Part shown: piece by piece, positions 20,206-43,562 of the stretch
Position numbering within the stretch: position 1 is the first letter of the stretch
How the letters are laid out: every line of letters begins with the position of its first letter
DNA from: an uncultured virus (IMG/VR IMGVR_UViG_3300032282_004167)
Taxonomy: Duplodnaviria > Heunggongvirae > Uroviricota > Caudoviricetes
DNA: 64,000 nucleotides
Strand: one strand, 5' to 3'
IMG/VR virus record: IMGVR_UViG_3300032282_004167
Made by a program: the position numbers and the translations under genes
The notes under the pieces: model-generated
Seen by the model: the letters and a program-made list of their open reading frames with translations, nothing else
What the model was told of the DNA's origin: nothing
Database searches by the model: none

Positions 20206-20210
20206 AAAGG

Positions 20211-20504: not shown

Positions 20505-20511
20505 TCCATCA

Positions 20512-20610
20512 GCCCCTAGTGGATATCAGCCGTTCGACTCGGCTGGGGGGCACTAGCAATCTTCGGATTGCAACAATCCTTATTAGTGAAATATAAGTAA
20601 CTGAGAGGAG
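20512..20610 (+). ncRNA. tRNA-like leader element 2
   Basis: GCCCCT/GGGGGC stem, CAGCCG-TTCGACT-CGGCTG arm, GCAATC-TTCG-GATTGC hairpin, TTAGT-GAAA..AAGTA-ACTGA hairpin. Confidence 0.8.
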
Positions 20611-20621
20611 AAAGAAAGATA

Positions 20622-21248
20622 ATGAACACCTTCAAGAAGGTTCTTCGTTGGTTCCCGGTTGTTACCATTGTGCTCGTTGCCATTATGGCAATTGGTACGG
20701 TATGCGGTAACGACTACTCTTGGTCTTCGGACAAGGGTAGTTTGGTCAAGGCTATTAGTGCTCAGTTCGGACACAGTAGCTGGAGTCATTTCCTCAATAA
20801 TGCAGGAATGTTTGCAATGTTTGGCATTCCTGCCGAGTTATTGTTCAAGAAGAAGAAATGGTATATAGCGGCAATTAGTGTGGCTATTGTACCACAGATG
20901 GTTGTGTCTTACTTCGGTTGGGCACGTAATGGTATGGGTGCCAGCGGATGGGTTACGTCTATCCTTGGCATTCTTGCTGCTGCAGTGTGTGTAGCGGCAA
21001 TAAGAAATGTCCGCAATATTGATGGTGAAGGCAATATGGGCGTTTCTTTCGCTGTAGTTATGCCCATCTTAATTGGTGTGTTTCTTCTCGTGCAGGAAGT
21101 AGGGAAGAACAACGCACCTAGAGTAGCGGGAGATATCTCGCACTATGCCATGCATATCGTAGGATATGCTATCGGGCTGACTATCGCATTTGTTGCTGTG
21201 GTGAGCTGGATTATTACGTTGATTGTCAATTACCGACGTAATAAGTAA
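20622..21248 (+). CDS. Rhomboid-family intramembrane serine protease
   Basis: FGHSSWSHFLNN, GMGASG catalytic Ser motif, HIVGYAIG catalytic His, about 6 TM helices. Confidence 0.85.
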   Translation: MNTFKKVLRWFPVVTIVLVAIMAIGTVCGNDYSWSSDKGSLVKAISAQFGHSSWSHFLNNAGMFAMFGIPAELLFKKKKWYIAAISVAIVPQMVVSYFGWARNGMGASGWVTSILGILAAAVCVAAIRNVRNIDGEGNMGVSFAVVMPILIGVFLLVQEVGKNNAPRVAGDISHYAMHIVGYAIGLTIAFVAVVSWIITLIVNYRRNK

Positions 21249-21525: not shown

Positions 21526-21570
21526 GTAAGTCTCGGGGGATTGGCTAACCCTGGCAACAGAACAATAGCC

Positions 21571-21673
21571 CCCTTCCTGGTGGATAATCATAGGTTCGAT
21601 TCCTATGGAGGGACTAGTGATCTTTCGGGATCACAACACTTCTACCTGATGAAAAGGAAGTAATCAGGAGAAG
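21571..21673 (+). ncRNA. tRNA-like leader element 3
   Basis: CCCTTC/GGAGGG stem, ATAGG-TTCGATT-CCTAT arm, GTGATC/GATCAC hairpin, and a final hairpin nearly identical to that of element 1. Confidence 0.8.
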
Positions 21674-21686
21674 AAAGGAGCATGTA

Positions 21687-22157
21687 GTGCTACTTGTACA
21701 CTATATGAGCCTCCAGCACAATCCCTACAATGGGATTTTGCCGGGTAAATGCGTGTTTAGCGGAACGCGCCCCGGCATCTGGGCCGTCCCCTTCATCGAA
21801 GAGGGACCGTATTCTCGCCTTAAGCACTTCTGGTGTGATGGCAAGAAGCGGGACCTCCAAGTCATCTTGAACGTACCCGAAGAATTTGTCAGGTACTCAA
21901 AGATGGGAAGGATTCAGCCGGTTCCTGCTGATATTAACACGTTAGCAGGACGTTGCACTGATGATGATAATGGCGCAGTGATTATTGCACCATTTGATCC
22001 TTCTTGGATCGTATCAGTAAAGTGCGCATACCCGACCAAAACAGGGTACGTTGAGGAAGAAATTCCTCACGGGTTCTGGGAAGATCTTGATTATGGTCCA
22101 CCCGCACCCCCTACGTTTGGTCCGTCTTTCAACTTTAAGCTGGATATCGTTGACTGA
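21687..22157 (+). CDS. Hypothetical protein, possible ADP-ribosyltransferase-like fold
   Basis: LVHY....GILPG...PGIWA...FDPSWIVSV. ORF well supported, fold tentative. Confidence 0.4.
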   Translation: MLLVHYMSLQHNPYNGILPGKCVFSGTRPGIWAVPFIEEGPYSRLKHFWCDGKKRDLQVILNVPEEFVRYSKMGRIQPVPADINTLAGRCTDDDNGAVIIAPFDPSWIVSVKCAYPTKTGYVEEEIPHGFWEDLDYGPPAPPTFGPSFNFKLDIVD

Positions 22158-22162
22158 CATCA

Positions 22163-22222
22163 GCCCCTAGTGGATATACGCCGTTCGACTCGGCGTGGGG
22201 GCGCTAGCGATCTTAGGATCGT
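22163..22222 (+). ncRNA. tRNA-like leader element 4
   Basis: GCCCCT/GGGGGC stem, ACGCCG-TTCGACT-CGGCGT arm, GCGATC-TTAG-GATCGT hairpin, followed by a pseudoknot at 22229-22261. Confidence 0.8.
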
Positions 22223-22326
22223 GAGAATGACCCGATTATCAGGTCGTTAAACAAGGATAATAAGAACCTGGCTTCATTAAGAGTCGGCCAGAATATCTTA
22301 GACTCTTTCATCAGTTAGGAGGACTG

Positions 22327-28023: not shown

Positions 28024-28110
28024 ACTCCATCTCATCATGAGTAATATAAGTAGGAGAGCTAACCCCTCTTCTACTTATATTATTCTTATCAAACATATCA
28101 ATCAATCAAA

Positions 28111-28259
28111 GCGCGAGCGAGCGAAGCGAGCGAGCGCGTTAAAGAGTCAACGAGCGTAGCGAGTAACTCTGATTAGCTGAGCGAAGCGAAGCATCTACAC
28201 TATCTAGACTAGTTTATCTAGTCAAAGATGTGTTCTGGGCGCGAGCGAAGCGAGCGCCC
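28111..28259. repeat. Cluster of GCGAGCGAAGCGAGC mini-hairpin repeats (possible origin or ssDNA signal)
   Basis: Copies at 28111, 28151, 28179 and 28237, with more at 29079, 29291, 29336 and 44723. The cluster opens a roughly 1 kb ORF-free AT-rich region. Confidence 0.7.
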
Positions 28260-29114
28260 TTATATGGGTTGAAGGACGAAGTCCGAAGGGATTAGCCCTT
28301 AACCTGTATAAAATAATACTCTCCGTGACAGGTCATTCTTGACCCCCGTCTAATATCGATACCTCTTGACATAATCTTGATTTAAATACTACTCTGCGTA
28401 GTAGAAAGAGTATAAGAACTCGGCAATATACACACTCCCATCTCTATAAATAACCATCGCACAAAACACAAATACTATGCCATATCCCCTATTACATACA
28501 CTGTAGAACTACAGTATAAGTAGGTAATACATAAGGATATGTTTAGCATAACACCAGGTATTGTTATGATTTAATGCGATTCAGGGAATTTTTTGATGGG
28601 GGCCTAGTACAATTGACAGATAATTGACAAAGTATAAATAGCTATGGACTCTCTAGAGTCTTATTAGCTATGAGGTTATTTGAGAAGAACTATATGTATG
28701 TTATTCTTCTTATTGTTCTCTTTTGTTTGGTTATCTATGCATAATAGTCAATTTGTGTTGCGGCGAATTCTTCTAGTCTGTACAATGACAAGGAGTAACC
28801 ACTTGTAAGTTCATACTTGGTGCAGGTCATACTATGAACTTCTTTACCTGTGAGTGGTTGCTCCTTTTGATTGTATGTACTATCCCGAAATCTCTTATTC
28901 CCCGATTGCACTATGATAAGAAGTATCTGGTTACATATATCTATGCATGTGGCTCGTCCTCAATTCCTCCTTTCTAGTTGAGGACTTGACGCCTATATGT
29001 AGATATCCTCCTTATGTAATTAGATGCTTCTTATGACAGTGTATATTGCGGGAAATTATTTCTGACAAAAAGAGGGGAGCGAGCGAAGCGAGCGACCCGT
29101 ACTGGAGGCTTACT

Positions 29115-29309
29115 ATGCAGAAATCACTACAACCATCATGGGTTTGTGAGAAGTGTAACTTCATGGTTACTGAACACGATCTCCGCTTCTTTCAGATGTC
29201 TAGACCACCTGTGGTTTGTTCTCGATGCAACTGGTTTGTGTCGCAATCCAAATCTTTGGTGAAGCGCAAAGACTATGTCGTTCAAGTATGGCGAGCGAAG
29301 CGAGCCTGA
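29115..29309 (+). CDS. Small Zn-ribbon protein
   Basis: WVCEKC...CSRC, GGAGG RBS. Confidence 0.6.
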   Translation: MQKSLQPSWVCEKCNFMVTEHDLRFFQMSRPPVVCSRCNWFVSQSKSLVKRKDYVVQVWRAKRA

Positions 29310-29411
29310 CTAACGACTAGGAGAAAAAGAGGGGAGCGAGCGAAGCGAGCCTAACTATCAATCTCCGGGCGACCCTGTTGGTCGCTATGGCAATCGCTCG
29401 TTATGAAATTG

Positions 29412-29453: not shown

Positions 29454-29571
29454 GGAGCGGCGCTAGATGGCATGGCGTTAGTCGCAGGATTAGGATGGGC
29501 ACATTCGGCGTTTCCTAGCGTGAACTGTGTTTACCTGCGAGACTGAGGGTTCGATTCCCTCCCACTCCACC
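29454..29571 (+). ncRNA. tRNA-like RNA with the anticodon loop replaced by a pseudoknot
   Basis: Acceptor GGAGCGG/CCACTCC, D-like arm, T arm GAGGG-TTCGATT-CCCTC, extended anticodon stem enclosing TAGGA/TCCTA and GGCACA/TGTGTT. Confidence 0.65.
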
Positions 29572-29660: not shown

Positions 29661-29945
29661 ATGACATTACCCGTTCTGGCTCAGAACTATCAAGATGCAT
29701 TCGATCAGTGTTACATCGATTGCGATAGTATTGAGGCTATTATCAACCCCAAGACTCCGCGTCACCCATTCCTCAGTGGCAGCAATGCTGCTGAAGCAGC
29801 ACTTGGTTTGGTTGCTATCACCGCAGGTGTTGCTACCATCATAACTACTGGTTCAATGCTTTCTGCATGGTTGTCACTTGTATTCGCAATTGGCACAACC
29901 ATCATCGCTGCACTTAGTGCCTATCATCTTTGGCATGGTAACTGA
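29661..29945 (+). CDS. Small two-TM membrane protein
   Basis: 94 aa, GGAGG RBS. Confidence 0.6.
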   Translation: MTLPVLAQNYQDAFDQCYIDCDSIEAIINPKTPRHPFLSGSNAAEAALGLVAITAGVATIITTGSMLSAWLSLVFAIGTTIIAALSAYHLWHGN

Positions 29946-29947
29946 CC

Positions 29948-30142
29948 ATGACAGACAATGAATGGAAGTCACTAAGGCAGCGCGTCAACCAGTGGGCTAA
30001 GACTTACCGTAATGAAGATTTCATGTACGGAAGCCCGTATTCATACTGGGCGTTTGCCAAGTCAAACGACATCATTTCTCAGGCAGAATTTGATTATGCC
30101 GAGAAGCAATTTGGTCAACTCTGGCACTACAGAGGTGACTAA
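29948..30142 (+). CDS. Hypothetical protein
   Basis: 64 aa aromatic-rich ORF ending LWHYRGD. Confidence 0.6.
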   Translation: MTDNEWKSLRQRVNQWAKTYRNEDFMYGSPYSYWAFAKSNDIISQAEFDYAEKQFGQLWHYRGD

Positions 30143-30294
30143 CAACCGCGATACCTAGGCGGTATAACCTGTGGCGTTTTCCACAGGGCACTCATAAGAG
30201 TGAAATGTAAGGCCGGGTTTTAGCATCTGAACCTGGGATCGGGATCATGCTCAACCCTACTGATCAGAAGTTGTTAAACTCAGATCACCTTAAT

Positions 30295-30359
30295 TACTCG
30301 TTACAGCGAGTATAAACAGATCCTTAAGCTGTAAGCGTTGCGTATTTACGCAGATGGAC
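30295..30359 (+). ncRNA. Pistol self-cleaving ribozyme
   Basis: P1 ACTCG/CGAGT, loop TTACAG pairing with CTGTAA, conserved ATAAA, TTAAG and GCG segments, P3 TTGCGT/ACGCAG, P2 TCC/GGA. Confidence 0.8.
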
Positions 30360-30564
30360 ACAGTCGTTCTGAGAAAAGTCGTGGAACGCTGTCACTTCCT
30401 TTTATACTTTATCGCCTAGATGAGCCTCGCTAGCAGGCTATTGTGGGTTCGTGTATTTCGACTTTAATCCATACCCGATAATGATAATCACGAATAGTCA
30501 TTATCACTTGTATAAAAAGAGGGGAAAGTTTTCTTTCCTTTTCATATTAACTGGAGGATAACCC

Positions 30565-31152
30565 TTGATCACCGCTGATACCACTCTTGCTGCAATCAAT
30601 CCTGATTTGCTGCCCGATACTTCCGAGCGATTCCACCTTCCAGGTGCTGTCGATCTTCCCAACCGCAATCCTAACCAGGTTAGTGGCAAGCAGGTAAAGA
30701 TCATTGTCCGTTACGCTAAGGACAATATTCCTGCTTCTGCAACCTTCGCTCAGGCGATTGCTCAACTCCGTTCCAAGTTCTTGGTTGGAGCTCAGCAGGA
30801 TTTCAATCTCGTTGAGAAGATTCTCGAAGAGACTCGTGCAGAAAATGCCGAGAACGATCTTTCCGACGCTCAGAACAAGATGGTCATCACCATCCTGAGC
30901 GCTTTGGCTGGCACTGCAAACCATTGGGATATGGGCATCAATGCCAAGATCGCATCTGCTCCTAAGGCTCTGAAGTCAACCTTCATCATGTCTTTGTCTG
31001 CAGTGCGTACCCAAGGTCAACTTACTGTTTTCATGGACCGCTTTGCTGCAGTCTTTGGCCGTCCTCAGCCTAAGGCTGGATTGGGCGAGCCCCTTATGGC
31101 TCAGTCTACTGTAGCTGCTGCCCCTGAAACGGCCCTCGAAGAGCCATTCTGA
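30565..31152 (+). CDS. Hypothetical protein with an SSB-like C-terminal tail (ALEEPF)
   Basis: 195 aa, GGAGG RBS, TTG start, AAAAGAGGGG motif upstream, hairpin downstream. Confidence 0.7.
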   Translation: MITADTTLAAINPDLLPDTSERFHLPGAVDLPNRNPNQVSGKQVKIIVRYAKDNIPASATFAQAIAQLRSKFLVGAQQDFNLVEKILEETRAENAENDLSDAQNKMVITILSALAGTANHWDMGINAKIASAPKALKSTFIMSLSAVRTQGQLTVFMDRFAAVFGRPQPKAGLGEPLMAQSTVAAAPETALEEPF

Positions 31153-31562
31153 TTCACCCGTATCTGTGACCCCTGTCCCGAGTAATCGGGGCAGGGGTTA
31201 TTGATCTTATTAAGGAGTAAGATATGGATACAGTAAAAGCAGGCTTTTTCATGGGCTTGTTTTCCCTTGGTCTTGGAACTATTGGCGTAATCTTTGGAGT
31301 ACCCTTGTTCCTCGGATACCTCATTTCTGGTGCAGGTATTCTATTCTTTTTGAGTGGCTTTGCCTTCTCCCAGAACTAATCTTGAAAGGACGTTATTATG
31401 AATCTTAAGAATCAAAATCTTACCGATCTCCTTGATGACAACGATCCTCTTCGCTTTATGCGAAACGATTTTATCAAAGAGCTTCGCGAATACGTTGCCA
31501 AGAAAAGAACTGAAATCAATGCATTTGCTTTTAGCGCTTTCCCTTCGGACTAAGGAGGAGTT

Positions 31563-31757
31563 TTGTCTCATCTTGTTTACATTGCCGTTTCTGTTCTGGT
31601 TGATGAGGTCTACCAGGAAGAAATGATTCGTCAAAGTCTTAGTGATTATATTAATAATCGCTATGAGAATTGCGATCCTCGTATCGTTATTCTTGGTAGA
31701 CTTGACCAAGATCAAGCACGTCCTGTATCAAAATCTCTTGTTTCTAATGTAACATAG
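31563..31757 (+). CDS. Hypothetical protein
   Basis: AAGGAGGAG RBS, 64 aa. Confidence 0.5.
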   Translation: MSHLVYIAVSVLVDEVYQEEMIRQSLSDYINNRYENCDPRIVILGRLDQDQARPVSKSLVSNVT

Positions 31758-31771
31758 TTTCACGTGAAACA
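31756..31771. other. parS centromere-like site
   Basis: AGTTTCACGTGAAACA: 15/16 match to TGTTTCACGTGAAACA, with a perfect 14-bp core palindrome, at a gene end. Confidence 0.75.
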
Positions 31772-31920
31772 ATTGCATTGCAAAGTACCTGCTCACAGGA
31801 TCTTTGCTTTTGGTCGTATAGTGTGAATAATATGTAATTATATAATTATATATATTCACATTTATACACCTTAAACCTATATAACTTTCCATAAAAAGAC
31901 GGGCAAATTGGAGGTCTTTC

Positions 31921-32151
31921 ATGACTAAGTGCTGCAGTCCTAACTGTGACGAACCCAGCGTTGATATCCATAAAGATACTCGTTGGTGTGGTAAGCACTA
32001 TGGTATTTATCCTCACCAGTGCGAATACCTTGGCTGTGGCCGAATCGTTCAGTATGATGATGAACCATGGTGTTTCACTCACAGTCCTGATAGTGGCAGT
32101 TCTGTCCGTGGCTATTCAGCGTACGATAAAGTTTTTCGTTCCACACTTTAA
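31921..32151 (+). CDS. Small Cys/His-rich Zn-finger protein
   Basis: Two C..C...WC..H repeats. Confidence 0.6.
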   Translation: MTKCCSPNCDEPSVDIHKDTRWCGKHYGIYPHQCEYLGCGRIVQYDDEPWCFTHSPDSGSSVRGYSAYDKVFRSTL

Positions 32152-32174
32152 AATCATGAAGAGCAAGGAGCATC

Positions 32175-32399
32175 ATGAGTATCAAGAAGGACGGCCCTAC
32201 TGCAGCTGATTATGATCTCACCAGCCTTACTTATGAAGAGCGGTGCATGATCTTTTTGCATGCAATTGGTTATGACATCAAAGGTTTCTTTGAGGCTCAT
32301 AACCTTCAAATCCGTATCACAGATCCTGCTGGTGAAATAATGAACCGAGAATTCATTCCTCGTCGTTCATTTCACAAGCGCAAGATTAAACACTCTTAG
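32175..32399 (+). CDS. Hypothetical protein
   Basis: 74 aa, AAGGAG RBS. Confidence 0.55.
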   Translation: MSIKKDGPTAADYDLTSLTYEERCMIFLHAIGYDIKGFFEAHNLQIRITDPAGEIMNREFIPRRSFHKRKIKHS

Positions 32400-32410
32400 T
32401 AGTGTTTAAT

Positions 32411-33728
32411 TACCCCGAGTAAGGTATAAAATTACTCCGTATTTCATCACGTTACGAGAAGATTATATGGCAATGTTGTTGAGTCATATAATCAAAGGTA
32501 AATTACAACCTCTGTGGAGACTTGATTACAGTAATAGCAACTCTGCAACTAAAATCTGTACGTCTTGGGTAGGACGTTAAACTACTCATCGGTAACCACT
32601 CGGTCATCAGAACGCGGAGCCGTAAGGCACGCAAAGTTGATGAACTCCCGCAAGGGAGAGGGCAGGTGCCCGTCTTGGGCAGGACGTTAACTTGCCCGCA
32701 ATTGATAGGTGGTCGGCCTGTAACGCCGTCCATTAAATGAGGCAGAGTAGGCAACGGAACTACATGACGAGACGGGGGATGTCCTCGATAACCACCACAA
32801 CGCTTCGCGAGCCGGTGGCCGAGGGATAAGTGAGACTGAGACCCCGGTGAAAAGACCAAACGTTGTTGACATCATGTCGGAGTAGAAACCGAACGAGTAG
32901 CCAAAGCTATCCGTCACAACAGACGTTAAACGTTATTAGCATTTGATCCGATGATTCCTATAGGGCCCTATGACCCATAGGCTGAGGCGAGAATGCTAGT
33001 ATAGTGCCCCTACTTATCCTGTTTCAGGGACAACCACTTATAAGAAAACAGGCCCATTCCTGTCAAGGGAGATTGACAATAGGGGCAGCCCATTTATCTG
33101 TTATTGGGAACCACTGTTAAATAAAAACAGACGTAGGTTGTGAGCTCTTACGATACTAGAACTCTCACACACCTGACTGCATGACACTTGTAAGACTTTT
33201 GCATCTTCAAGATGGGTTCGACTCCCATGTCGGGTACGGAGTACCGCAGATAACACAGAGCTGTGTGCAGGTTCGATTCCTGCAACGACAAGGGCCATAG
33301 TAGGCAAGTCGCAGCCGACGGAATTTATGGTTATAAGCTTACTGGTTACGCCCAGACGCATATAGTCATAATCCGGTGAATCCATTTATCGGCAAACGTG
33401 GTTGACTTGCAGCAGGCTAGTGCTGCTTAAGTCTAGGGCTAGCCTCCCTAATCTGTGGGAAACTCGATTTATAGACCGCCAGGCGCATGAGCAGCGTATG
33501 CTCCCATAGCATAAGGAGAATGCTATTTTAGCAAACTGAAGCGCAGTTATCTACTCTCTCCTGGCGGAGAGATAGAAACATGCGTGGATTCTAGGTCCTG
33601 GAGCACGACTTAAAACTGCTCCATTAATTATATCTTATAGGTAACCCAAACCGGTAACGACTGGGCGCTGTAGTAAAAAGGCAACCTTAGTATGACGTTT
33701 AGTCTTACTGTCCCGTTTACTTACCTAT
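32411..33728 (+). ncRNA. Non-coding island of multiple structured RNAs
   Basis: No credible ORF. GNRA hairpins, AGTA/GAA motifs, many pseudoknots and two TTCGA T-arms. Confidence 0.65.
33171..33236 (+). ncRNA. tRNA-like structure with a non-canonical core
   Basis: ACCTGAC/GTCGGGT acceptor and ATGGG-TTCGACT-CCCAT T arm. No canonical D or anticodon arm. Confidence 0.6.
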
Positions 33729-33777
33729 AATTTATATAACTTTTTTTGTTTTATTAAAACTGTTTCTTTATTTTTTT

Positions 33778-34038
33778 ATGACTCAAAAAAAACATTTTGT
33801 ATCGCTGTGGAAAGAAAGTTTATTTTTGCGTAAACAACTTGCTTGTGAAATAGCTAAAAATAGACGTTTATTTCCTTTAACTAAAAGTCAAATTGATCTT
33901 GGCATTGGTGTAGCCAATGGTCGAACTTTTAATTGGAAACAGCTCGATAAAACTAACTATTCTGACGTAGCTATTTTCAATGCTTTATTGAGAATAAAAA
34001 TTAGCTCTACTCAACACAGTAATTCTACTGCTGAGTAA
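33778..34038 (+). CDS. Hypothetical protein
   Basis: 86 aa ORF, weak RBS. Confidence 0.35.
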   Translation: MTQKKHFVSLWKESLFLRKQLACEIAKNRRLFPLTKSQIDLGIGVANGRTFNWKQLDKTNYSDVAIFNALLRIKISSTQHSNSTAE

Positions 34039-34039
34039 G

Positions 34040-34351
34040 TTATTTGCTCTTGACTACACCATTAGGAATTGCTGCTAATCTGCAGTATCCACCTGGTTCA
34101 ATTTCTGCTTTGATGATCTGACATACTTTTTCAGATTCGTAAAAAGCGCAATGTGAACAATGTACTCCAATGTCATAGTTTTCATTTTCGCTCTCTGGAA
34201 CGTATCCTACCCAGATACCGTTCTTATCTTTATCAGCTAATTTTCCATATTTCTTGGCAATGTTGCGCAATGCGTTTACAAATTCTTGCTCTGCTGGAGC
34301 TAATTTGTATTGTGCTGCTTCTAACATTTCTGCTACCCAGTATATACTCAT
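34040..34351 (-). CDS. HiPIP-like (4-Cys iron-sulfur) domain protein
   Basis: CSHCAFY....CQII...IEPGGYC matches HiPIP Cys spacing. Confidence 0.6.
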   Translation of the reverse strand: MSIYWVAEMLEAAQYKLAPAEQEFVNALRNIAKKYGKLADKDKNGIWVGYVPESENENYDIGVHCSHCAFYESEKVCQIIKAEIEPGGYCRLAAIPNGVVKSK

Positions 34352-34503
34352 TGTAAATCCTTTCTGTTCTCATACAGAATAATAGTACATTTACCATGAG
34401 TTATCCATACGTTTTTACATATTTATGAGTTAAATCAACTGATAATCTTTAATCTTTTTTAATCCTGAACATAAAAGAAAACCATTTATCTTATGGAGGA
34501 TTT

Positions 34504-34848
34504 ATGTCAAGTTCAGATACCATTTTTATGGATCCTGATACTACCAAGAATAAAGTTCGTGGACGAGGAATTCACTTTAGCCTAAAATCTGCAATTGAAA
34601 ATCCAAATAAGTGGGTAATAAGGAGCATTCGTACCGATACCACTGAGGATCGTGTACGTCTCCACGCTCTTGGTAGTTCAACTAAGCGCAACAACACTGC
34701 TGGTAAGAACTGGCAATACAAGGTTTGCCGTTACAACAAGGCCCATTTTAGCCCTAAGCAGTTAGAGTCTTATGGTCTTAACTTTGATGACATCTCAGCA
34801 GACACTGTCATTGCCCTGCATATGCGTGTCTCTGATTCAACTATTTGA
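34504..34848 (+). CDS. Hypothetical protein
   Basis: 114 aa, GGAGG RBS. Confidence 0.65.
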   Translation: MSSSDTIFMDPDTTKNKVRGRGIHFSLKSAIENPNKWVIRSIRTDTTEDRVRLHALGSSTKRNNTAGKNWQYKVCRYNKAHFSPKQLESYGLNFDDISADTVIALHMRVSDSTI

Positions 34849-34868
34849 TTACTTAGAAACGAGCTATC

Positions 34869-35063
34869 ATGCCTAAACTTGGAGACTTTGTCGAAAATCC
34901 AGACAGTACATTTGGTCAGCTTCAGGAACTGTTAAAGACAATGGATATTCCTCTGAATAGGTTTGGTGATTTGCGCTGGCTTGCCAGAAATATTGGCATC
35001 AACAATTCTAATCATCCTAATCTTGACAAAGCTGTAGCATTGATCAAGAAGCTATCTTCATAG
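34869..35063 (+). CDS. Hypothetical protein
   Basis: 64 aa, in the operon. Confidence 0.55.
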   Translation: MPKLGDFVENPDSTFGQLQELLKTMDIPLNRFGDLRWLARNIGINNSNHPNLDKAVALIKKLSS

Positions 35064-35075
35064 ATCGGTCTTAAT

Positions 35076-35546
35076 GTGAAATTTTGGAAACAAGCTACAT
35101 TAACAATTGGCACTGCGTGTTTTTCTTTTGCCGTTTTGTATAATGTCTTTTCTCCAGTAATTGCTACACTTCTCATGTCTGTGCTTGCTCTTCATGAATT
35201 TGCACATTTCATGGCTGCCAAATACTTTAACCTTGATCCTCGTCTCCCTCTGTTTGCCCCATTCTTTATTGTTACGTTTGGAGCAACATATATAGGTAAG
35301 TCTTTTGACGAGATTCAAGGTATGGTTATTGCTGCTGCTGGTCCCATTGCGGGCATTATGGCATCTACTGCTATAATGTCTGTTAGTTTCTTGATGGGTA
35401 ATCCTGTTGTCAGCACCATTGCTGGATCTTTGCTTATTGGAGAGATCCTCAACCTTAGTCTTGGATTTGATTCTGCTAAGATCCGCAAAGGATTGAAGTC
35501 ATTGAAGAAGCAATATTCTTTCACTTCACAGTTGGTCTTCAGCTGA
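35076..35546 (+). CDS. Site-2 protease (M50) family intramembrane metalloprotease
   Basis: LHEFAH within a TM helix, IAAAGP, and NL....DS in place of the NxxPxxxxDG motif. Confidence 0.75.
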   Translation: MKFWKQATLTIGTACFSFAVLYNVFSPVIATLLMSVLALHEFAHFMAAKYFNLDPRLPLFAPFFIVTFGATYIGKSFDEIQGMVIAAAGPIAGIMASTAIMSVSFLMGNPVVSTIAGSLLIGEILNLSLGFDSAKIRKGLKSLKKQYSFTSQLVFS

Positions 35547-35621
35547 AATCATAATCCACGATCTACTGATCAGAAATCGTAAAACTCAGATCATTATTCG
35601 TTTTGCTTTTTTAGGAGAACA

Positions 35622-35840
35622 ATGTCAACAGATGAGTCTTCCTATTCTCTTACAGAGAAGGATTTGTTCATTCTTACCAGTCGTCTTGACGGGAAGAATT
35701 TCAGGCAGATTGCCCCTTTTGTTTCACTAACTGCTGAATCTGTTCGGATTAGGTACAACAAGATTCTTGTTAAGTATCCTGATTTAAGGAAATATCCATC
35801 CTCAAAGATAAAGGATATGGTTAGTGTCTTACAATCATAA
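35622..35840 (+). CDS. Helix-turn-helix protein (sigma region 4-like)
   Basis: LTEKDLFIL..R..GKNFRQIA....LTAESVR. Confidence 0.65.
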   Translation: MSTDESSYSLTEKDLFILTSRLDGKNFRQIAPFVSLTAESVRIRYNKILVKYPDLRKYPSSKIKDMVSVLQS

Positions 35841-35993
35841 TCCTATTTCTTTCTGTTTTACTCATACTGAGTTCAATTTGATTCGTGATATCCTTAAGTC
35901 TTGGGACGGCTGGATTCAACGTGAAGAACGCATTATGAATGATCAAGAAGAAGTTGTTTATAAGTCTTTGATTGATCGTTTTAAGGAACAAGT

Positions 35994-36281
35994 ATGACTA
36001 CTTGTCCTTTTGGTGATACTTATCCTAGTGAATCTTTTTCGCCTTTTGGCGGAGACGGATGGACTTTTACTTTTGATAACGGCTATGGTGCTTCTGTTGT
36101 CAGGCATCCATATTCCTATGGTTATCCTAATCTTTGGGAGTTAGCCGTTACTCATTCTGGAAAACTCTGTTATAATACTCCTATTACTTCTGATGTTCTT
36201 GGTCATCTTACTGAGCAAGAAGTTTGTTTTTATCTTGATGAAATAAACGCTTTACAGTCTTCAGAAAAAACAAATGTATAG
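35994..36281 (+). CDS. Phage hypothetical protein
   Basis: FDNGYGASVV....SYG....WELAV....TPITSDVLGHL, a pattern recalled from other phages. Confidence 0.65.
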   Translation: MTTCPFGDTYPSESFSPFGGDGWTFTFDNGYGASVVRHPYSYGYPNLWELAVTHSGKLCYNTPITSDVLGHLTEQEVCFYLDEINALQSSEKTNV

Positions 36282-36648
36282 TCAACAGAACTACACTCAT
36301 CGCATGTCTCTGCCCAATAATTCAGAGATAACAATTCATGTTGCCCGCATATATCGTGGCAAACTTGTTCAAGCTACCATTCCCTGTATTGTATCAATTC
36401 TTGCTCCTATTAATAATAACTATAGAGTTCTTTATCCTCAGGTTGATGTTCCTAAACCATTTGCTCGTTTTCTTAGAGCATACTATGCACCTAAGCAATA
36501 CTTTTGGTTAGGTTTTGGATTTGATACTCCCGAGCAAGCAATCAAAGCTATTTACAAAGACGACTATGCTAAGTTTACCAAAGCTTATCATAAATATGAT
36601 ATTGCTAAAAAAGTAATATCACAAACTCACCCTCATTTGTTTCACTAA
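36274..36648 (+). CDS. Hypothetical protein
   Basis: 124 aa, overlaps the upstream gene end. Confidence 0.55.
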   Translation: MYSQQNYTHRMSLPNNSEITIHVARIYRGKLVQATIPCIVSILAPINNNYRVLYPQVDVPKPFARFLRAYYAPKQYFWLGFGFDTPEQAIKAIYKDDYAKFTKAYHKYDIAKKVISQTHPHLFH

Positions 36649-36660
36649 TAAGGATACTCA

Positions 36661-37011
36661 ATGAGTTCAGCTATCGTTACCAGAGAACAAGCTTCTAGCA
36701 TTATTGTAGCTGTTACCAAGCCACGTCTCCAAAAGAATTCTACTCCTCATCTCGTTATGATGATATTGAAATCTTTTGGAGTTAACACCTTTATACATGT
36801 ACAAGAGCTTGCTAATGTCAGTTCAGCTATTAATCTTGACAGAATTGTTACCATTCTTAAGCGCCCTTTAGACAAAGGTTATTTGTTTAGAGATGGCGAT
36901 TATTACGCTCTGACTCCTGTTGGAAATCAGGTTCTTTATAACCTTGCAGAGCTTCATCCATCTCCCGATGCCTTGTCGGAAAAAGAGGGGGATGAAGATA
37001 TTTATGCTTGA
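36661..37011 (+). CDS. Winged-HTH-like protein
   Basis: LDKGYLFRDGDYYALTPVG wing motif. Confidence 0.55.
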   Translation: MSSAIVTREQASSIIVAVTKPRLQKNSTPHLVMMILKSFGVNTFIHVQELANVSSAINLDRIVTILKRPLDKGYLFRDGDYYALTPVGNQVLYNLAELHPSPDALSEKEGDEDIYA

Positions 37012-37246
37012 AGCATCTTTTGTTGCTATTAGAATTTTCATCACAGCTACTTTTGTTATGTTTGCGTCTTCTGTTATCAGAAGTCCACATAACTCTACTG
37101 ACATTATTGTCATGATTGTTGCTTTCCCCATTATTGCTTTGCTGTATCTTGTTCATTCTTGTCTTGAAAGATATGAGCGCAATAAGAACAGACGTTATTA
37201 TTTGCAACATACCAGGCATTATTATTCAGATCGTTAGGATACCAAC

Positions 37247-37624
37247 ATGGCTTCTTGCTTTCCTTATACTATCTTTCTTAACTCTTCTTCTCAGTTCTTA
37301 AGGCCCTATCGTGTCGGTGACAAAATGACACTTATGCACAATGGAACTGTTGATACCGATAAGCTATTATCTTCTGAGAAGATTGCAGATAATTCTGCTA
37401 AGCTTAACCATGTTCTTAACAAAATCTTTACTTACTTCAATAATTCTAATGATTGTTGTGGTAGTTCTCACCGTTCAATGTCTGTCGGTGATGTAGTCGT
37501 TCTTGGCGAGTTTGCTTTTAGCTGTGTCGAGAATGGATGGGTACCTGTTAATCTTTCCAATGATTACTGGTTATCCACAAAACTTCGCATTCCTGCTAAT
37601 TCTTTTCAATCAGTAGGAATTTGA
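37247..37624 (+). CDS. YodL-like domain protein
   Basis: HRSMSVGDVVVL....C...GW. Confidence 0.55.
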   Translation: MASCFPYTIFLNSSSQFLRPYRVGDKMTLMHNGTVDTDKLLSSEKIADNSAKLNHVLNKIFTYFNNSNDCCGSSHRSMSVGDVVVLGEFAFSCVENGWVPVNLSNDYWLSTKLRIPANSFQSVGI

Positions 37625-37996
37625 TGACATCCTGGAAAGACAGGAATTTAATAACTTTTCAGTAATACCTAAATACTTTTCAAAAAATCAAAGGCTTGTA
37701 GCAAAGCCTTGGATTTGTTGTGTTATCGGTAGTGAACGCGAACGGCCACGTCCTAGAGTTGCTAGCACAGCTAGGCTTTTGGTCCATTCTCAATCCAGAA
37801 ACCTAAACAAACATTTCCTAAAGGTTGAGTACCAGATATAACTAAGATATATAGATATATATAGTAGAGTAAGTTCCCATTTAGAGGCGTCTACTGTAAA
37901 CGACGCGATCTTTTGGCGAACGTCAAGTAACTCTTAGTTATGTTTGGTACTCAACTTGCTATATTAACTGCTATTAACAAAATGGAGACAGCTATC

Positions 37997-38545
37997 ATGT
38001 GCGCCCGGACAAGAACTTCACGTTCGCTTCGCGATATTCGTAATCGATTTCTTACTCAGCTTGATTATCGTATTTCTGAGCCATCTTCTCAGTACTCTTA
38101 TCCTGGTTCTACTATTCCTTTCGTTATTAAGGGTAAAGAAGTAGACCGAGTTCTGTCTTCTTCTACTTGGGGATACCCACTTAATAACGATACCAATAAG
38201 TATATTTATAACGCCAGGATTGAAAACGTTCCTACTAAATCTTTCTGGCATCCTTATCAGAATTCTCGCGTACTAATTCCTGTTACTTCTTTCTTTGAGA
38301 AAGATGAATGGTTTGCGCCCAAAGACCATAATCTTATTGCTCTTGGCGGCTTGTATATGCGCGATACATATTTCAGGTCCTTGATCGTTTGTACTACTCC
38401 TTCAGTTCAACCTGATATGATTGCTAGCAATTCACGCATGCCTGTTGTGATTCATCAAGATCAATGGTCTGATTGGCTTGATCCAACTCACGATATTAAC
38501 GGTTTTGATTTTGTTTCCGAAGGATATATTAAAGAAAATGCCTAA
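37997..38545 (+). CDS. SRAP/YedK (SOS response-associated peptidase, abasic-site binding) family protein
   Basis: MC start at 37997, YNARIENV, RVLIPVTSFFE, RMPVVI, WL. Confidence 0.8.
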   Translation: MCARTRTSRSLRDIRNRFLTQLDYRISEPSSQYSYPGSTIPFVIKGKEVDRVLSSSTWGYPLNNDTNKYIYNARIENVPTKSFWHPYQNSRVLIPVTSFFEKDEWFAPKDHNLIALGGLYMRDTYFRSLIVCTTPSVQPDMIASNSRMPVVIHQDQWSDWLDPTHDINGFDFVSEGYIKENA

Positions 38546-39071
38546 CTTTCTTATTCAGCGAGATAATGGTTTTTATCGTCTTGCTTATCAACATTGTTTT
38601 TCTGATACAGGCGAAATCACTAACTATTATATCGATAAAAGTGGAGCTCTTTGTGGCTCTATTGCTCCTTTTGGCATGCATTCTCTTGACGAATTAATGG
38701 AAGTATTAGTCAAGCTTGATACGATAACTTTGGATGAAGAGCATGCTCTTCGTCTTTCTACAGGTAAACTTTATGTTTGGCTCCATAAACTTAAGTCTCT
38801 CCCGTTGATTAGTCTTTCCATAGTCAAAACAACCATTCCCGATATTGCTGCAAAATTTGACAGTTTTATTACTGAATATAAAGAACAGTCTTTCGATCCC
38901 TTGTTTAGCTATGCTTTGTTCTCCATGTATGGTGAATATCATGATCATATCATCGCTGCCATTAAGTTCATGAAGCCTTGGGACTCTATTCCTTGTGGTG
39001 ATCCCCTGGTGCCTCCAGGGATTAAAGATTATGTTGCTTTTCTCTTAGGCCTTATCGAAAATGCTTGGTGA
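38517..39071 (+). CDS. Hypothetical protein
   Basis: Long ORF. True start likely the ATG near 38538. Confidence 0.5.
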   Translation, partial: PKDILKKMPNFLIQRDNGFYRLAYQHCFSDTGEITNYYIDKSGALCGSIAPFGMHSLDELMEVLVKLDTITLDEEHALRLSTGKLYVWLHKLKSLPLISLSIVKTTIPDIAAKFDSFITEYKEQSFDPLFSYALFSMYGEYHDHIIAAIKFMKPWDSIPCGDPLVPPGIKDYVAFLLGLIENAW

Positions 39072-41493: not shown

Positions 41494-41714
41494 GGAGTCA
41501 TGGCGGAATAGGCAGACGCGAAGGACTTATCGTTTATTTCTTCCCCTATATGTCTCCGTCTGTGCATGACAATTTGGACAAAGTAATCTACGTCCTAGTA
41601 TCCCAACCGGCAGAGGAAGAGGTCTTAAAAACCTTACAGTGAGGGTTCGAATCCCTTCTAGGGCACTGTACAACTAGTGATAGAGTGTGAGTTCGATTCC
41701 CACTGACCCTACCA
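41494..41714 (+). pseudogene. Split or degenerate tRNA-Leu whose halves flank an intact tRNA
   Basis: 5' half GGAGTCATGGCGGAATAGGCAGACGCGAAGGACTTA (41494-41529). 3' half ...GTGAGTTCGATTCCCACTGACCCTACCA ends at 41714. Confidence 0.65.
41592..41665 (+). tRNA. tRNA-Leu(UAA), short variable loop
   Basis: GTCCTAG/CTAGGGC acceptor, GAGGT-CTTAAAA-ACCTT anticodon arm, GAGGG-TTCGAAT-CCCTT T arm. Confidence 0.9.
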
Positions 41715-43121: not shown

Positions 43122-43562
43122 ATGAAAATAACTGTCAAAAAGCTTTTTGTTCCTGTACTTGTAATAATTTTAGCTGTCATAGGATTTTCTCTTCTAACTT
43201 CCTGTGGAGATAAAATTACCTACGTAAATACCCCTACTACTTCTCCCTATGACACTACTGTGCCCTCTACTGTAGCATCAACTACTACGGTTACTTATTA
43301 TAGCACTGAACAACAGTTTGTTGATAATGTCCGAGCTACTCTTCAGCCTGGCACTTATTATGTCACCGACGAGCAATTGGTCAAAATTGCCAATATTGCT
43401 TGCAACGTTTTACGCACTGGCGGCACTGGGGCGGATCTTGCTTCTGCTCTAGTCGAAACTGTTTCCAATGATTTAGACCGTACCTTTATTGCTAAAGCAA
43501 CTGGTATGGGTGTTTCTTATGTCTGCCCAGAACTCAGTTACAGACTGAAGCTTACCTCCTGA
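43122..43562 (+). CDS. Lipoprotein with a DUF732-like domain
   Basis: Lipobox LLTSC, Thr-rich linker, F...V.......IA..AC..L..G....F.....V...CP. Confidence 0.7.
   Translation: MKITVKKLFVPVLVIILAVIGFSLLTSCGDKITYVNTPTTSPYDTTVPSTVASTTTVTYYSTEQQFVDNVRATLQPGTYYVTDEQLVKIANIACNVLRTGGTGADLASALVETVSNDLDRTFIAKATGMGVSYVCPELSYRLKLTS

Follow-up and report, generated by a model that had tools for sequence, protein, structure and literature searches.

A non-coding island with mosaic conservation, repeated hairpins and tRNA look-alikes in a large uncultured phage

Phage non-coding RNAs beyond riboswitch size are few, and the functions of those such as GOLLD and ROOL are open. An island of about 1.3 kb free of open reading frames (ORFs), originally bounded at positions 32411–33728, lies in a 64,000-nt stretch of DNA from a large uncultured phage (IMG/VR record IMGVR_UViG_3300032282_004167; hereafter the window) and raises the question of what it encodes. 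The original prediction, drawn from the letters of the sequence, saw in it either one large non-coding RNA or an array of small RNAs. Here we report that the locus is non-coding and probably gives rise to RNA, as supported by the lack of ORFs, by a core that outconserves the flanking genes and by the presence of one module in an RNA library.

Coding content and genomic context

The phage context is clear, with TerL in the genome, and the host is probably an actinobacterium, judged by the WhiB, DUF732 and Rv2632c-like genes. The longest + strand ORF in the island is 41 amino acids long, and each of the six frames carries 18–35 stops with all three stop kinds present, so that recoding opens no frame and a recoded protein gene is ruled out. 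None of the three minus-strand ORFs (118, 76 and 94 amino acids) matched Pfam at E ≤ 1, and for the 118-residue ORF neither a homologue nor the ORF itself was found among 5.8 billion called proteins; these ORFs were thus ruled out as genes. The island was therefore ORF-free as predicted, containing no open frame with homologues or a family match. Its GC content is 0.46–0.53, versus 0.28–0.40 in the flanks, and a scan for sigma-70 promoters and terminators made no + strand call within the island. For the flanking ORFs between 30565 and 39071, the sole Pfam matches were to Peptidase_M50 and SRAP, with nothing in PHROGs; a search of IMG/VR with these ORFs and TerL found no relatives, and the sole match to the neighbouring ORF 30565–31152 among 5.8 billion proteins was itself.

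Mosaic conservation in other sequencing runs

We compared the island with contigs assembled from four other sequencing runs (X2, X6, X8 and X9), leaving out runs X3–X5, X7 and X10–X14, which hold small shares of the words and were not counted as evidence of presence or habitat, and parts uncovered in a compared run were not taken as absent from it. The 5′ half, approximately 32556–33170, is ~98–99% identical in X2. The X2 contig matches 32341–33023 with 30 differences over 683 nt, of which just five substitutions and one insertion are listed for 32556–32992 and 14 for 32371–32555, and it differs at three of 166 nt over 33004–33169; its next 397 nt are unlike the upstream genes of the window and could not be aligned with them. 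X6 matches 32438–32885 with 13 differences, and X8 matches 32684–32963 and 33077–33295. In X9, a river metatranscriptome and thus an RNA library, the whole 223-nt contig corresponds to 32685–32907 with five differences, so that this module is present in all four compared runs. The library may contain DNA, which weakens this as support for an array of RNAs, and the left end of the contig at 32685 nearly coincides with a DNA contig end at 32684 and is therefore possibly an assembly break.

The 3′ half is either replaced or ~82% identical in relatives. X6 carries 107 other letters in place of 33296–33446 and resumes matching over 33447–33501, and X2 carries 164 other letters in place of 33296–33498 and matches 33499–33625 with 23 differences and three indels; the tRNA look-alike T2, immediately beside the swapped stretch, is kept in both. 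Identity falls sharply at 32341 (X2) and 33885 (X6), with unlike sequence outside. As far as these alignments indicate, conservation in other metagenomes is much stronger in the island core than in the flanking genes. Variants in confidently predicted hairpins are few and mostly preserve pairing on the + strand; at 32390, 32640 and 32668 pairing is kept via G-U, which works solely for a + strand RNA. Against the array, 32741 G>A (X6 and X8) disrupts a predicted terminal pair.

Searches for known RNA families

The original prediction suggested kinship with GOLLD, ROOL, tmRNA or RNase P RNA. We searched 32400–33750 (1.35 kb) and 29800–34300 (4.5 kb) with Infernal cmscan against Rfam 15 (4,227 families) at E ≤ 10 with permissive filters, and nothing in the island rose above noise; its top match was whalefall-1, at 16.1 bits versus a gathering score of 37. 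The GOLLD and ROOL covariance models matched neither segment, tmRNA and RNase P RNA had no Rfam match in the island, where ARAGORN called no tmRNA, and the tRNA model (threshold 29 bits) had no match there even at E ≤ 10. The proposed kinship thus found no support at this threshold. Self-cleaving ribozymes of the Pistol, hammerhead, twister, twister-sister, hatchet and HDV-like kinds, all represented in Rfam 15, were absent from 32400–33750 at E ≤ 10. Group I and II introns, riboswitches, 6S and raiA, the last likewise an Rfam family, were ruled out as having no Rfam match in the island, and UUGAUGA in module 1 was rejected as part of a hammerhead because GAAA is absent after stem II. The GOLLD profile is distributed by Rfam, according to the GOLLD preprint (bioRxiv 10.1101/2024.12.08.627333). 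The best GOLLD-like candidate of the original prediction, 32590–32930, proved to consist of two modules with a repeated hairpin between them; the larger part, module 2, folds no better than shuffled sequence (minimum free energy z = +0.14; 108 of 200 shuffles as good), which also counts against an array of folded RNAs.

A blastn search of 32300–33900 against 50,697 phage records returned zero matches. From module 2, a 31-mer spanning the variable site 32741 and a 22-mer were both without a match in IMG/VR, and a 20-mer had one match in GTDB genomes, which we regard as chance because there is no similarity outside the 20 nt. Between the island DNA and the whole records G001–G007 we found only the 27-nt hairpin described below or matches of 14–19 nt, the best of which was a T-loop.

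Organization of the 5′ half

The left edge and the 5′ half contain the following elements, whose boundaries come from predicted folds, pair probabilities, repeats and reading of the sequence.

32385–32410, + strand: perfect 10-bp palindrome or hairpin, ATTAAACACT/AGTGTTTAAT, pair probability 0.99
32461–32493, + strand: 11-bp hairpin in a less conserved leader, pair 32461–32493 at probability 0.99
32561–32582, + strand: hairpin A, CGUCUU-GGGU-AGGACG then UUAAAC (repeat and pair probability)
32583–32670, + strand: module 1, 88 nt, three-way fold (minimum free energy z = −2.34)
32671–32691, + strand: hairpin B, CGUCUU-GGGC-AGGACG then UUAAC (repeat and pair probability)
32692–32911, + strand: module 2, ~220 nt, the most widespread piece (four of four compared runs)
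32912–32931, + strand: hairpin C, CGUC-ACAACA-GACG then UUAAAC (repeat and motif count)
32934–33001, + strand: module 3, domain with an 11-bp closing stem (predicted fold)
33008–33056 and 33089–33133 (span 33005–33135), + strand: modules 4 and 5, paralogous pseudoknot-like units (read from the sequence)
33140–33168, + strand: hairpin ending 2 nt before T1 (predicted fold)

The palindrome at 32385–32410 spans the stop codon of ORF 32175–32399 and forms the left edge of the island; the X2 change 32390 A>G turns an A-U into a G-U pair, and pairing is therefore retained. In the leader hairpin, 32461 G>A and 32493 C>T occur together in X2 and convert G-C into A-U, and X6 has 32461 G>A alone, leaving a terminal mismatch with 32493 that speaks against the array. 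The 3′ arm of this hairpin contains TATAAT at 32487–32492, a possible −10 box by its letters; the promoter scan made no call at 32461–32493.

Spaced along the 5′ half are three hairpins with a common CGUC-loop-GACG-UUAA(A)C form. Hairpin C shares the stem and tail of A and B with a different loop, which is the site of both of its variants (32917 C>T and one inserted A). The hairpin A loop GGGUAG could also pair with CUACUC at 32582–32587, and the flanks of hairpin B, GGGCAGGU (32660–32667) and ACUUGCCC (32690–32697), can pair together. The 20-mer CGTCTTGGGYAGGACGTTAA occurs twice, and none of 100 shuffles had two or more copies; GACGTTAA occurs three times on the window + strand, always within the island. 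A fourth stem followed by GTTAAAC lies at 22229–22252, behind another tRNA-like element. The shorter GACGTTAAAC was rejected as a genome-wide motif, with 51 matches at two or fewer mismatches versus 47.5 expected.

The window bears one ribozyme match, outside the island and 2 kb upstream of it:

30296–30359, + strand: Pistol self-cleaving ribozyme (RF02679), 59.7 bits versus a gathering score of 34.5

Hairpin B is identical in 26 of 27 nt to a hairpin whose 3′ end is 10 nt upstream of Pistol at loci L001, L002, L011 and L013 of an unrelated jumbo phage lineage with 33% GC, and in IMG/VR and JGI metagenomes the hairpin 20-mer was found in this one other phage lineage only (L001, L002 and L011–L013). 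The hairpin is therefore tied to an RNA-cutting site in that lineage, whereas no catalogued ribozyme stands behind the island hairpins. An obligatory Pistol accessory was ruled out, since the second Pistol of L013 lacks the hairpin, which is thus not part of the ribozyme. On a bolder side reading by analogy, module 1 or 2 might be an uncatalogued self-cleaving ribozyme occupying the slot of Pistol behind the 27-nt hairpin.

Module 1 contains both of the predicted GNRA hairpins, GCC-GTAA-GGC at 32619–32628 (loop GUAA, 32622–32625) and (C)TCCC-GCAA-GGGA(G) at 32645–32658 (loop GCAA, 32650–32653); five of 200 shuffles folded as well as this module, and both of its listed variants preserve + strand pairs, 32640 A>G by turning A-U into G-U and 32668 G>A by turning G-U into A-U. 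The loop-E-like motifs (AGTA/GAA) proposed near 32746 and 32881 survive as the letters AGTAG at both places, and their loop E reading is a mere sequence match. X2 has no listed difference over 32932–32992, which includes most of module 3. Modules 4 and 5 share the pattern TTATC..TGTT..GGGA(C)AACCACT..AAACAG, with CCCT/AGGG in module 4 becoming CCCA/TGGG in module 5 and CCTGTT/AACAGG becoming TCTGTT/AACAGA, and the module 4 unit lies inside a domain closed by TGCCCCTA/TAGGGGCA. AACCAC, which occurs four times in the island among ten on the window + strand, was rejected as a DnaA box or iteron on account of its wrong core and irregular spacing (196, 242 and 77 nt).

tRNA look-alikes

Between the two halves of the island lie two elements that resemble tRNAs:

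33171–33236, + strand: T1, tRNA-like element (predicted fold; ARAGORN)
33228–33290, + strand: T2, miniature cloverleaf (predicted fold)

T1 consists of a 7-bp acceptor stem, a single hairpin and a canonical T-arm; a D-arm and a normal anticodon arm are absent, and ARAGORN reports 33171–33237 as 'tRNA-???' with a 4-nt anticodon; over this stretch the X2 contig is not alignable at 80% likeness. In T2, the 5-bp acceptor stem and the T-arm are accompanied by two further 5-bp arms, the first with a loop of 3 nt and the second with one of 4 nt. The middle-arm loop of T2 varies, reading GAGC here, one base shorter in X8 and CGU in the loose end of X2, and its 3′ part (33262–33295) is kept in all three DNA runs. 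No D-arm cloverleaf with a 7-nt anticodon loop occurs in the island, and both T1 and T2 combine an acceptor-type stem coaxial with a T-arm and no decoding arm, as in a tRNA-like processing signal. The two overlap by 9 nt and so cannot both fold fully, which weighs against the array. A stretch of T2 (33266–33290) matches a tRNA-like element in 36 IMG/VR loci at 24 of 25 nt, and membership of that family was ruled out because only the T-arm and AACG align.

Both predicted T-arms are present, at 33212–33228 and 33267–33283, far beyond chance: each consists of a TTCRANN loop on a 5-bp stem with a closing G-C pair, and this strict pattern occurs nine times on the window + strand and never on the − strand, versus an estimated chance expectation of ~0.15 per strand. 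Two of the nine belong to tRNA genes, and the other seven, all on the + strand, lie between ORFs. The two real tRNA genes in the 64 kb are 8 and 19 kb from the island, whose adjacent elements are look-alikes. Four of the seven make up a repeated element in 5′ UTRs. These 5′-UTR tRNA-like elements come with a hairpin that sequesters the Shine-Dalgarno (SD) sequence. The comparison phage G002 has 17 + strand T-arms, most of them at 139–158 kb together with 16 ARAGORN tRNA genes. On these counts, tRNA look-alikes appear to be a habit of the present phage genome.

Variable 3′ half and bracketing repeats

The 3′ half comprises three segments:

33296–33446, + strand: swappable cassette including the GCAAGTC/GACTTGC domain at 33304–33410 (replaced in X6 and X2)
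33447–33625, + strand: 3′ module with CCGCCAGG/CCUGGCGG, CGCAUG/CAUGCG and a hairpin at 33550–33576 (X6 and X2 matches)
33629–33756, + strand: AT-rich terminal stem of 16 nt, 88% complementary, enclosing 76 nt, and a T-rich run at 33741–33756 (inverted repeat)

In the 3′ module, CCTGGCGG (33560–33567) is unchanged in the X2 listing, and the X2 changes at 33554, 33555, 33570 and 33571 re-register the flanking helix to CUAUAC/GUAUAG when read by eye. The stem and T-rich run at 33629–33756 suggest a possible transcript end; the terminator scan did not call them. Nested inverted repeats bracket the island at 32369–32379/33841–33851 (11 of 11 nt) and 32476–32491/33774–33789 (14 of 16 nt). Both together arose in one of 300 flank shuffles, the flanks having been chosen after the repeats were seen.

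Helices measured against chance

The original prediction also listed closed helical domains, all of which are present where it placed them:

33005–33012/33080–33087, + strand: closed domain TGCCCCTA/TAGGGGCA, letters as predicted
33304–33310/33404–33410, + strand: closed domain GCAAGTC/GACTTGC, letters as predicted
33477–33484/33560–33567, + strand: closed domain CCGCCAGG/CCTGGCGG, letters as predicted
33485–33490/33579–33584, + strand: CGCATG/CATGCG, letters as predicted
33629–33644/33721–33736, + strand: 16-nt inverted repeat containing ATAGGTAA/TTACCTAT (inverted repeat search)

Such helices are no commoner here than elsewhere in the genome. The island holds 13 inverted repeats of at least 7 nt within 130 nt, versus 6.8 in island shuffles (four of 300 reach 13), and as many occur in 18 of the 48 other window pieces of equal size. 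Minimum free energy z-scores of 120-nt windows range from −4.1 to +1.0, like the coding flanks, and the two strands of the island fold equally (−427 versus −430 kcal/mol). Helix density and z-scores at the genome background count against an array of small RNAs. Conservation of the helices is uneven: the 33304–33410 domain is replaced in both runs spanning it, and 33629–33724 has no counterpart in X2, as the X2 contig diverges from the window after 33625.

Weighing the explanations

Our tentative preference, held somewhat short of even confidence, is that the island is a precursor with an array of small RNAs and not one GOLLD-like RNA. Of the two alternatives originally offered, the array is favoured because single modules turn up on their own and are exchanged between relatives. 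One + strand precursor, roughly 32500–33750, would be a string of separately folding small RNAs, in which a highly conserved 5′ set (modules 1–5), spaced by the three CGUC-loop-GACG-UUAA(A)C hairpins, would be followed by the overlapping look-alikes T1 and T2 and then by a faster-evolving, partly exchangeable 3′ set. The hairpins and look-alikes would serve as punctuation, possibly as cutting or end-protecting signals for the host tRNA-processing enzymes RNase P and RNase Z or for some other nuclease; stable small RNAs, with whatever function they may have, would presumptively be cut out and released in this way.

It is rather unlikely, in our judgement, that the island instead encodes a single large ornate RNA belonging to a new class, ~0.6–1.3 kb long, with a lifestyle like that of GOLLD and ROOL yet unrelated to them, laid out as a conserved 5′ domain, a linker with tRNA-like modules and a variable 3′ domain. 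A GC-rich, ORF-free 1.3-kb phage block would suit such an RNA, as would the continuous cover of 32341–33169 by X2, which implies that the 5′ modules travel together, and the nested repeats could close the whole. According to its preprint, GOLLD is phage-encoded, often near tRNA islands, and is likewise composed of two unequally conserved regions, with tRNAs sometimes in the linker (bioRxiv 10.1101/2024.12.08.627333); in the island it is the 5′ half that is conserved, opposite to the arrangement described for GOLLD. No Rfam model matched at E ≤ 10, the 3′ cassettes are exchanged, and X8 and X9 contain module 2 but do not cover module 1 or 4. The outer repeat arms lie inside protein-coding ORFs; X2 alters the outer left arm at 32371 and 32375, and both X2 and X6 alter the inner left arm at 32479. 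We are similarly doubtful of the specific form in which the 5′ block ~32556–33170, perhaps joined by the 3′ half, is closed by the bracketing repeats as a new giant ornate phage RNA class; by analogy with GOLLD its tRNA-type modules would sit in the linker, and it could assemble into a higher-order particle. A long closed RNA of this kind, or a mobile cassette, agrees better with the bracketing repeats than an array does.

Conservation at the DNA level, with the RNA irrelevant, seems to us quite improbable. Here the island would be a cassette bounded by inverted repeats and moved recently between related phages, a recombination-prone segment or another cis-acting DNA site, which would account for the sharp identity drops at 32341 (X2) and 33885 (X6), the bracketing inverted repeats, replacement at a fixed joint (33295/33296) and the 27-nt hairpin held in common with an unrelated 33% GC phage. 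T-arm sequences are also classic integration targets. However, no integrase, transposase or endonuclease gene adjoins it (ORFs 30565–39071 against Pfam and PHROGs), the 11-nt repeat sits 28–34 nt within conservation limits that come from two different relatives, the G-U/A-U substitutions and the paired change 32461/32493 suit RNA helices, one module is in an RNA library, and the irregular AACCAC spacing is not iteron-like.

A slightly weaker case can be made for an untranslated regulatory region, the 3′ UTR of ORF 32175–32399 joined to the 5′ leader of ORF 33778–34038, which would control the stability or translation of its neighbours. The right arm of the inner repeat (33774–33789) covers the ATG of ORF 33778–34038, a real gene with a relative 82% identical over the same 86 amino acids, and the tRNA-like elements with SD-sequestering hairpins in other 5′ UTRs of the window lend this some plausibility. 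At 1.3 kb, however, the island far exceeds every leader in this genome; its core outconserves the genes supposedly regulated, those upstream being unalignable in X2, and the final 50 nt before the ATG are AT-rich and without a Shine-Dalgarno sequence. Least probable of all is a decayed tRNA gene cluster, that is, pseudogene remnants without present function. The GC-rich, ORF-free block has two T-arms in a phage with two recognisable tRNA genes per 64 kb, and related jumbo phages bear tRNA arrays (16 genes in G002), but the best conserved part (32556–33170, ~98–99% in X2) has no T-arm, the opposite of what neutral decay would leave, and the tRNA model is unmatched even at E ≤ 10.

Discussion

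The array proposed here has likenesses to several known systems. The phage T4 tRNA region yields one precursor from which host tRNA enzymes produce tRNAs and the stable small 'species 1 and 2' RNAs. A phage precursor processed into small RNAs is what we propose for the island, which lacks any functional-looking tRNA, has only T-arm look-alikes and bears no sequence relation to T4 (blastn, 50,697 phage records, no match). Punctuation by tRNA-like elements is known from the t-elements of plant mitochondria, MALAT1 mascRNA and the acceptor/T-arm minihelix substrates of RNase P. T1, in which a canonical T-arm stacks with a 7-bp acceptor stem and there is no cloverleaf, resembles these, as do T2 and the four 5′-UTR elements, which have an acceptor stem, a T-arm and a GG-containing connector; in contrast to them, T1 and T2 overlap and lie inside a larger non-coding block of a phage. 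With GOLLD and ROOL the island shares a large non-coding phage stretch, tRNA-type elements in or beside it, GNRA loops and possible pseudoknots, whereas its modules occur alone and are swapped, and a repeated hairpin divides it into pieces.

The island is visibly under stronger constraint than the surrounding genes and recurs in phages of several water bodies. Together with the nearby Pistol, the look-alikes between many genes suggest that phage transcripts are heavily processed at the RNA level, a subject that has received little attention in bacteria. Should the 5′ block be one RNA, it would represent a new large RNA class; if the hairpin-UUAAAC and T-arm elements are cutting signals, they would provide a simple, testable rule for the way in which transcripts are cut up in a large phage.

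Coding potential and architecture of the island

The island, an ORF-free stretch (32411–33728) originally predicted to be packed with structured RNA, encodes at most a 41-amino-acid ORF on the + strand, and all the motifs named in that prediction were found in the sequence, displaced by no more than 1–2 bases. Stop codons of all three kinds occur in each of the six frames (18–35 per frame), so an altered genetic code opens no frame and a recoded gene was rejected. Three ORFs on the − strand (118, 76 and 94 amino acids) translate into low-complexity sequence; none of the three matched Pfam at E ≤ 1, and the longest has no counterpart, itself included, among 5.8 billion called proteins. The GC content is 0.46–0.53 in the island and 0.28–0.40 in its flanks. 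The 86-amino-acid ORF downstream is a genuine gene, with a relative of equal length that is 82% identical.

Three similar hairpins, A, B and C, split the 5′ half into modules.

Features of the island
32561–32582, + strand: hairpin A, stem CGUC/GACG, tail UUAA(A)C
32583–32670, + strand: module 1, compact three-way fold with two GNRA hairpins; MFE z = −2.34
32671–32691, + strand: hairpin B, stem CGUC/GACG, tail UUAA(A)C
32692–32911, + strand: module 2; MFE z = +0.14
32912–32931, + strand: hairpin C, stem CGUC/GACG, tail UUAA(A)C
Module 3, + strand: domain with a predicted 11-bp closing stem
Modules 4 and 5, + strand: two paralogous units with the common pattern TTATC..TGTT..GGGA(C)AACCACT..AAACAG
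33140–33168, + strand: hairpin preceding T1 and T2
33171–33236, + strand: tRNA look-alike T1, predicted 7-bp acceptor stem, one hairpin and T-arm
33228–33290, + strand: tRNA look-alike T2, predicted miniature cloverleaf

Two base pairs are exchanged between modules 4 and 5, and the island contains four of the window's ten + strand copies of AACCAC. T1 and T2 overlap by 9 nt. The 3′ part holds the remaining domains of the original prediction, followed by an AT-rich long stem and a terminal T-run. Two nested inverted repeats surround the island (32369–32379/33841–33851 and 32476–32491/33774–33789), the right arm of the inner one covering the ATG of ORF 33778–34038; when the flanks, which were chosen post hoc, were shuffled 300 times, both arose together once.

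Comparison with chance and with known RNA families

The two T-arms claimed for the island are present and exceed chance: a strict T-arm pattern has nine + strand matches in the window, two of them tRNA genes, and none on the − strand, against about 0.15 expected per strand by our estimate. The 20-nt repeat CGTCTTGGGYAGGACGTTAA, present twice, also exceeds chance (at least two copies in 0 of 100 shuffles). The segments said to close domains are likewise there, but their density is not exceptional for this genome: the island has 13 helices of at least 7 nt versus 6.8 in its shuffles, and this count is equalled or exceeded in 18 of 48 pieces from elsewhere in the genome. In sliding windows, the MFE z-scores of the island and of the coding flanks are alike, and neither strand folds better than the other; module 1 is the only piece of clearly low folding energy.

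Across the window, the only Rfam 15 matches at gathering scores are two tRNAs and a Pistol ribozyme (30296–30359, 59.7 bits). Permissive searches at E ≤ 10 of 4.5-kb and 1.35-kb segments gave only noise in the island, the best match being whalefall-1 (16.1 bits versus a gathering score of 37). Because Rfam distributes the GOLLD, ROOL and OLE profiles, as stated in bioRxiv 10.1101/2024.12.08.627333, these searches test membership directly, and the island matched none of the three at this threshold; kinship with GOLLD or ROOL is not supported. For 33171–33237, ARAGORN reported a tRNA of undetermined identity whose anticodon has four bases, and the tRNA covariance model did not match this stretch. 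T4 stable RNAs, t-elements and mascRNA are further systems for comparison.

Mosaic conservation among relatives

IMG/VR, JGI metagenomes and GTDB genomes yielded no sequence of a relative. An index of public sequencing runs gave 14 runs from nine studies in which the stretch is present wholly or in part; one contains it whole and may be its source, and the other 13 hold 4–16% of its words. We compared assembled contigs from four runs of four studies (X2, X6, X8 and X9). One X2 contig matches 32341–33023 with 30 differences; among those listed, 14 lie in 32371–32555 and five, plus one insertion, in 32556–32992, and its remaining 397 nt are unlike the upstream genes of the window. A second X2 contig covers 33004–33169 with three differences. 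Marine X6 matches 32438–32885 (13 differences), freshwater X8 matches 32684–32963 and 33077–33295, and a 223-nt contig of X9, a riverine metatranscriptome, lies wholly on 32685–32907 (five differences). The 34 nt of T2 at 33262–33295 are kept in X6 and X2. Immediately after 33295, X6 has 107 other letters in place of 151 nt, its match restarting at 33447, and X2 has 164 in place of 203 nt, restarting at 33499. On these alignments the island is therefore a mosaic: the 5′ block is under strong constraint, T2 is conserved, the cassette after it is exchangeable and the 3′ module evolves faster.

Among the variants listed, which comprise all but 23 of the qualifying differences, several fall in confident helices (pair probability ≥0.9). 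A>G changes at 32390 and 32640 convert A–U to G–U pairs; in X2, 32461 G>A is accompanied by 32493 C>T, so that G–C becomes A–U, and in X6 the former occurs alone and leaves a terminal mismatch. In the module 1 fold, 32668 G>A converts G–U to A–U. The G–U intermediates pair only as + strand RNA. In X6 and X8, 32741 G>A disrupts the terminal pair of a helix predicted with less certainty. Of the 19 variants listed for 32380–32935, about two-thirds occupy predicted unpaired positions. The T2 stem ACACA/UGUGU is kept around a loop that reads GAGC in the window, is one base shorter in X8 and reads CGU in a 30-nt loose end of the X2 contig. In the 3′ module of X2, CCTGGCGG is unaltered among at least 18 changes (18 listed), four of which, read manually, shift the flanking helix into a perfect CUAUAC/GUAUAG register. 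This pattern gives thin support to the RNA helices and is distinct from a covariation test.

Distribution of tRNA look-alikes

In addition to those of tRNA-Leu and tRNA-Ile, the window has T-arms at 20122, 20528, 21590, 22179, 29545, 33212 and 33267, every one on the + strand and between ORFs. A looser T-arm-like hairpin (41687–41703, GTGAG-TTCGATT-CCCAC, 4/5 pairs) lies ~20 nt after tRNA-Leu. Four of the T-arms belong to a repeated 5′-UTR element (20104–20215, 20508–20626, 21566–21690 and 22158–22260) before the ORFs at 20211, 20622, 21687 and 22327. It comprises an acceptor/T-arm minihelix, a connector (U/C)(A/U)GUGGAUA(A)U, ACUA and a 6–7-bp hairpin; in three of the four copies, the 3′ arm of a second hairpin lies over the Shine–Dalgarno sequence. 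Neither Rfam nor ARAGORN called any of the four. By eye, 29455–29571 is a tRNA-like stretch of ~115 nt, with ends GGAGCGG...CCACTCC-ACC and a canonical T-arm at 29545–29561, for which ARAGORN and Rfam made no tRNA call.

A 25-nt part of T2 agrees at 24 positions with the 3′ portion of another tRNA-like element, ~70 nt long, which 36 IMG/VR loci (for example, L065:2953-3024:+) carry ~25 nt upstream of start codons; the alignment does not extend to the remainder of T2. This element has an acceptor GGCGUUG/CAACGCC, a mini-hairpin GUGA-UGGU-UCAC, a T-arm and, replacing the anticodon arm, a variable hairpin with a GGGG or GNRA cap that covaries among variants (CAACUA/UAGUUG, CAACUG/CAGUUG and UUGCAUC/GAUGCAA). 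ARAGORN called it in none of five loci, and Rfam gave only weak tRNA-Sec matches (25–27 bits versus a gathering score of 47).

Hairpins and Pistol ribozymes

Searches of IMG/VR and JGI metagenomes found the hairpin 20-mer in a single further lineage, contigs of a 238-kb jumbo phage (33% GC) for which we detected neither a terminase nor an island in common with the window phage. The copy there agrees with hairpin B at 26 of 27 nt and is followed, after 10 nt, by a Pistol ribozyme (71 bits). The hairpin was rejected as a ribozyme part because a second Pistol of this phage stands without it. In the window, a fourth copy of the stem with GTTAAAC (22229–22252) follows another tRNA-like element. We infer that the hairpin may act at RNA ends, either shielding the upstream 3′ end or serving as a nuclease site. 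A literature search found no paper joining pistol ribozyme, bacteriophage and tRNA-like.

The window Pistol (RF02679) lies in the gap before ORF 30565–31152, preceded by GTTGTTAAAC at 30270–30279, and a very strong terminator-like hairpin (31166–31201; 16 pairs, 9 G–C) follows that ORF. Contigs of closely similar phages (L011 and L013) each carry a second Pistol (49 bits). In the 238-kb phage, L001 2560–2626 (and in L002) falls just short of threshold as a type II hammerhead candidate (36.6 bits; gathering score, 37) and lies 470 nt upstream of the hairpin and its Pistol.

The phage

The window covers 64 kb of a tailed phage that is large and very divergent. The large terminase (4931–6814, − strand; PHROGs) is nearest to those of jumbo phages (Moorella phage MTATph1, 35%; Bacillus phage 0305phi8-36, 29%), the neighbouring proteins mostly lack a family, and blastn of the island against phage records gave no match. 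WhiB, DUF732 and Rv2632c-like domains (56708–57196, 43122–43562 and 51944–52390) suggest an actinobacterial host. RecA, peptide deformylase, a rhomboid-like protein, a ClpX-type AAA protein and a ThiF/JAB pair are also encoded. In a gene-poor zone (28105–29352), the non-palindromic motif GAGCGAGCGAAGCGAGC, which may be a promoter or operator, is repeated about six times and lengthened to AAAGAGGGGAGCGAGCGAAGCGAGC in two copies (~29069 and ~29327), right before likely gene starts.

Interpretation of the island

The original prediction left open one large non-coding RNA or an array of small ones. A single RNA would account for the 5′ block travelling together, for the enclosing inverted repeats (11/11 and 14/16 pairs) and for a GOLLD-like layout of two domains with tRNA-type modules between, as described for that RNA in bioRxiv 10.1101/2024.12.08.627333; we nevertheless consider it unlikely. 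The same repeats, and the sharp limits of conservation, would also fit a cassette acting at the DNA level, to which we give a smaller chance. A long regulatory UTR and, least probable of all, a decayed tRNA array both fit more poorly than these two readings or an array of small RNAs, and we regard either as very improbable.

We tentatively favour an array of separately folding RNAs, because the modules occur and are exchanged independently, because the punctuation hairpins recur, and because this genome habitually places tRNA look-alikes between its genes.
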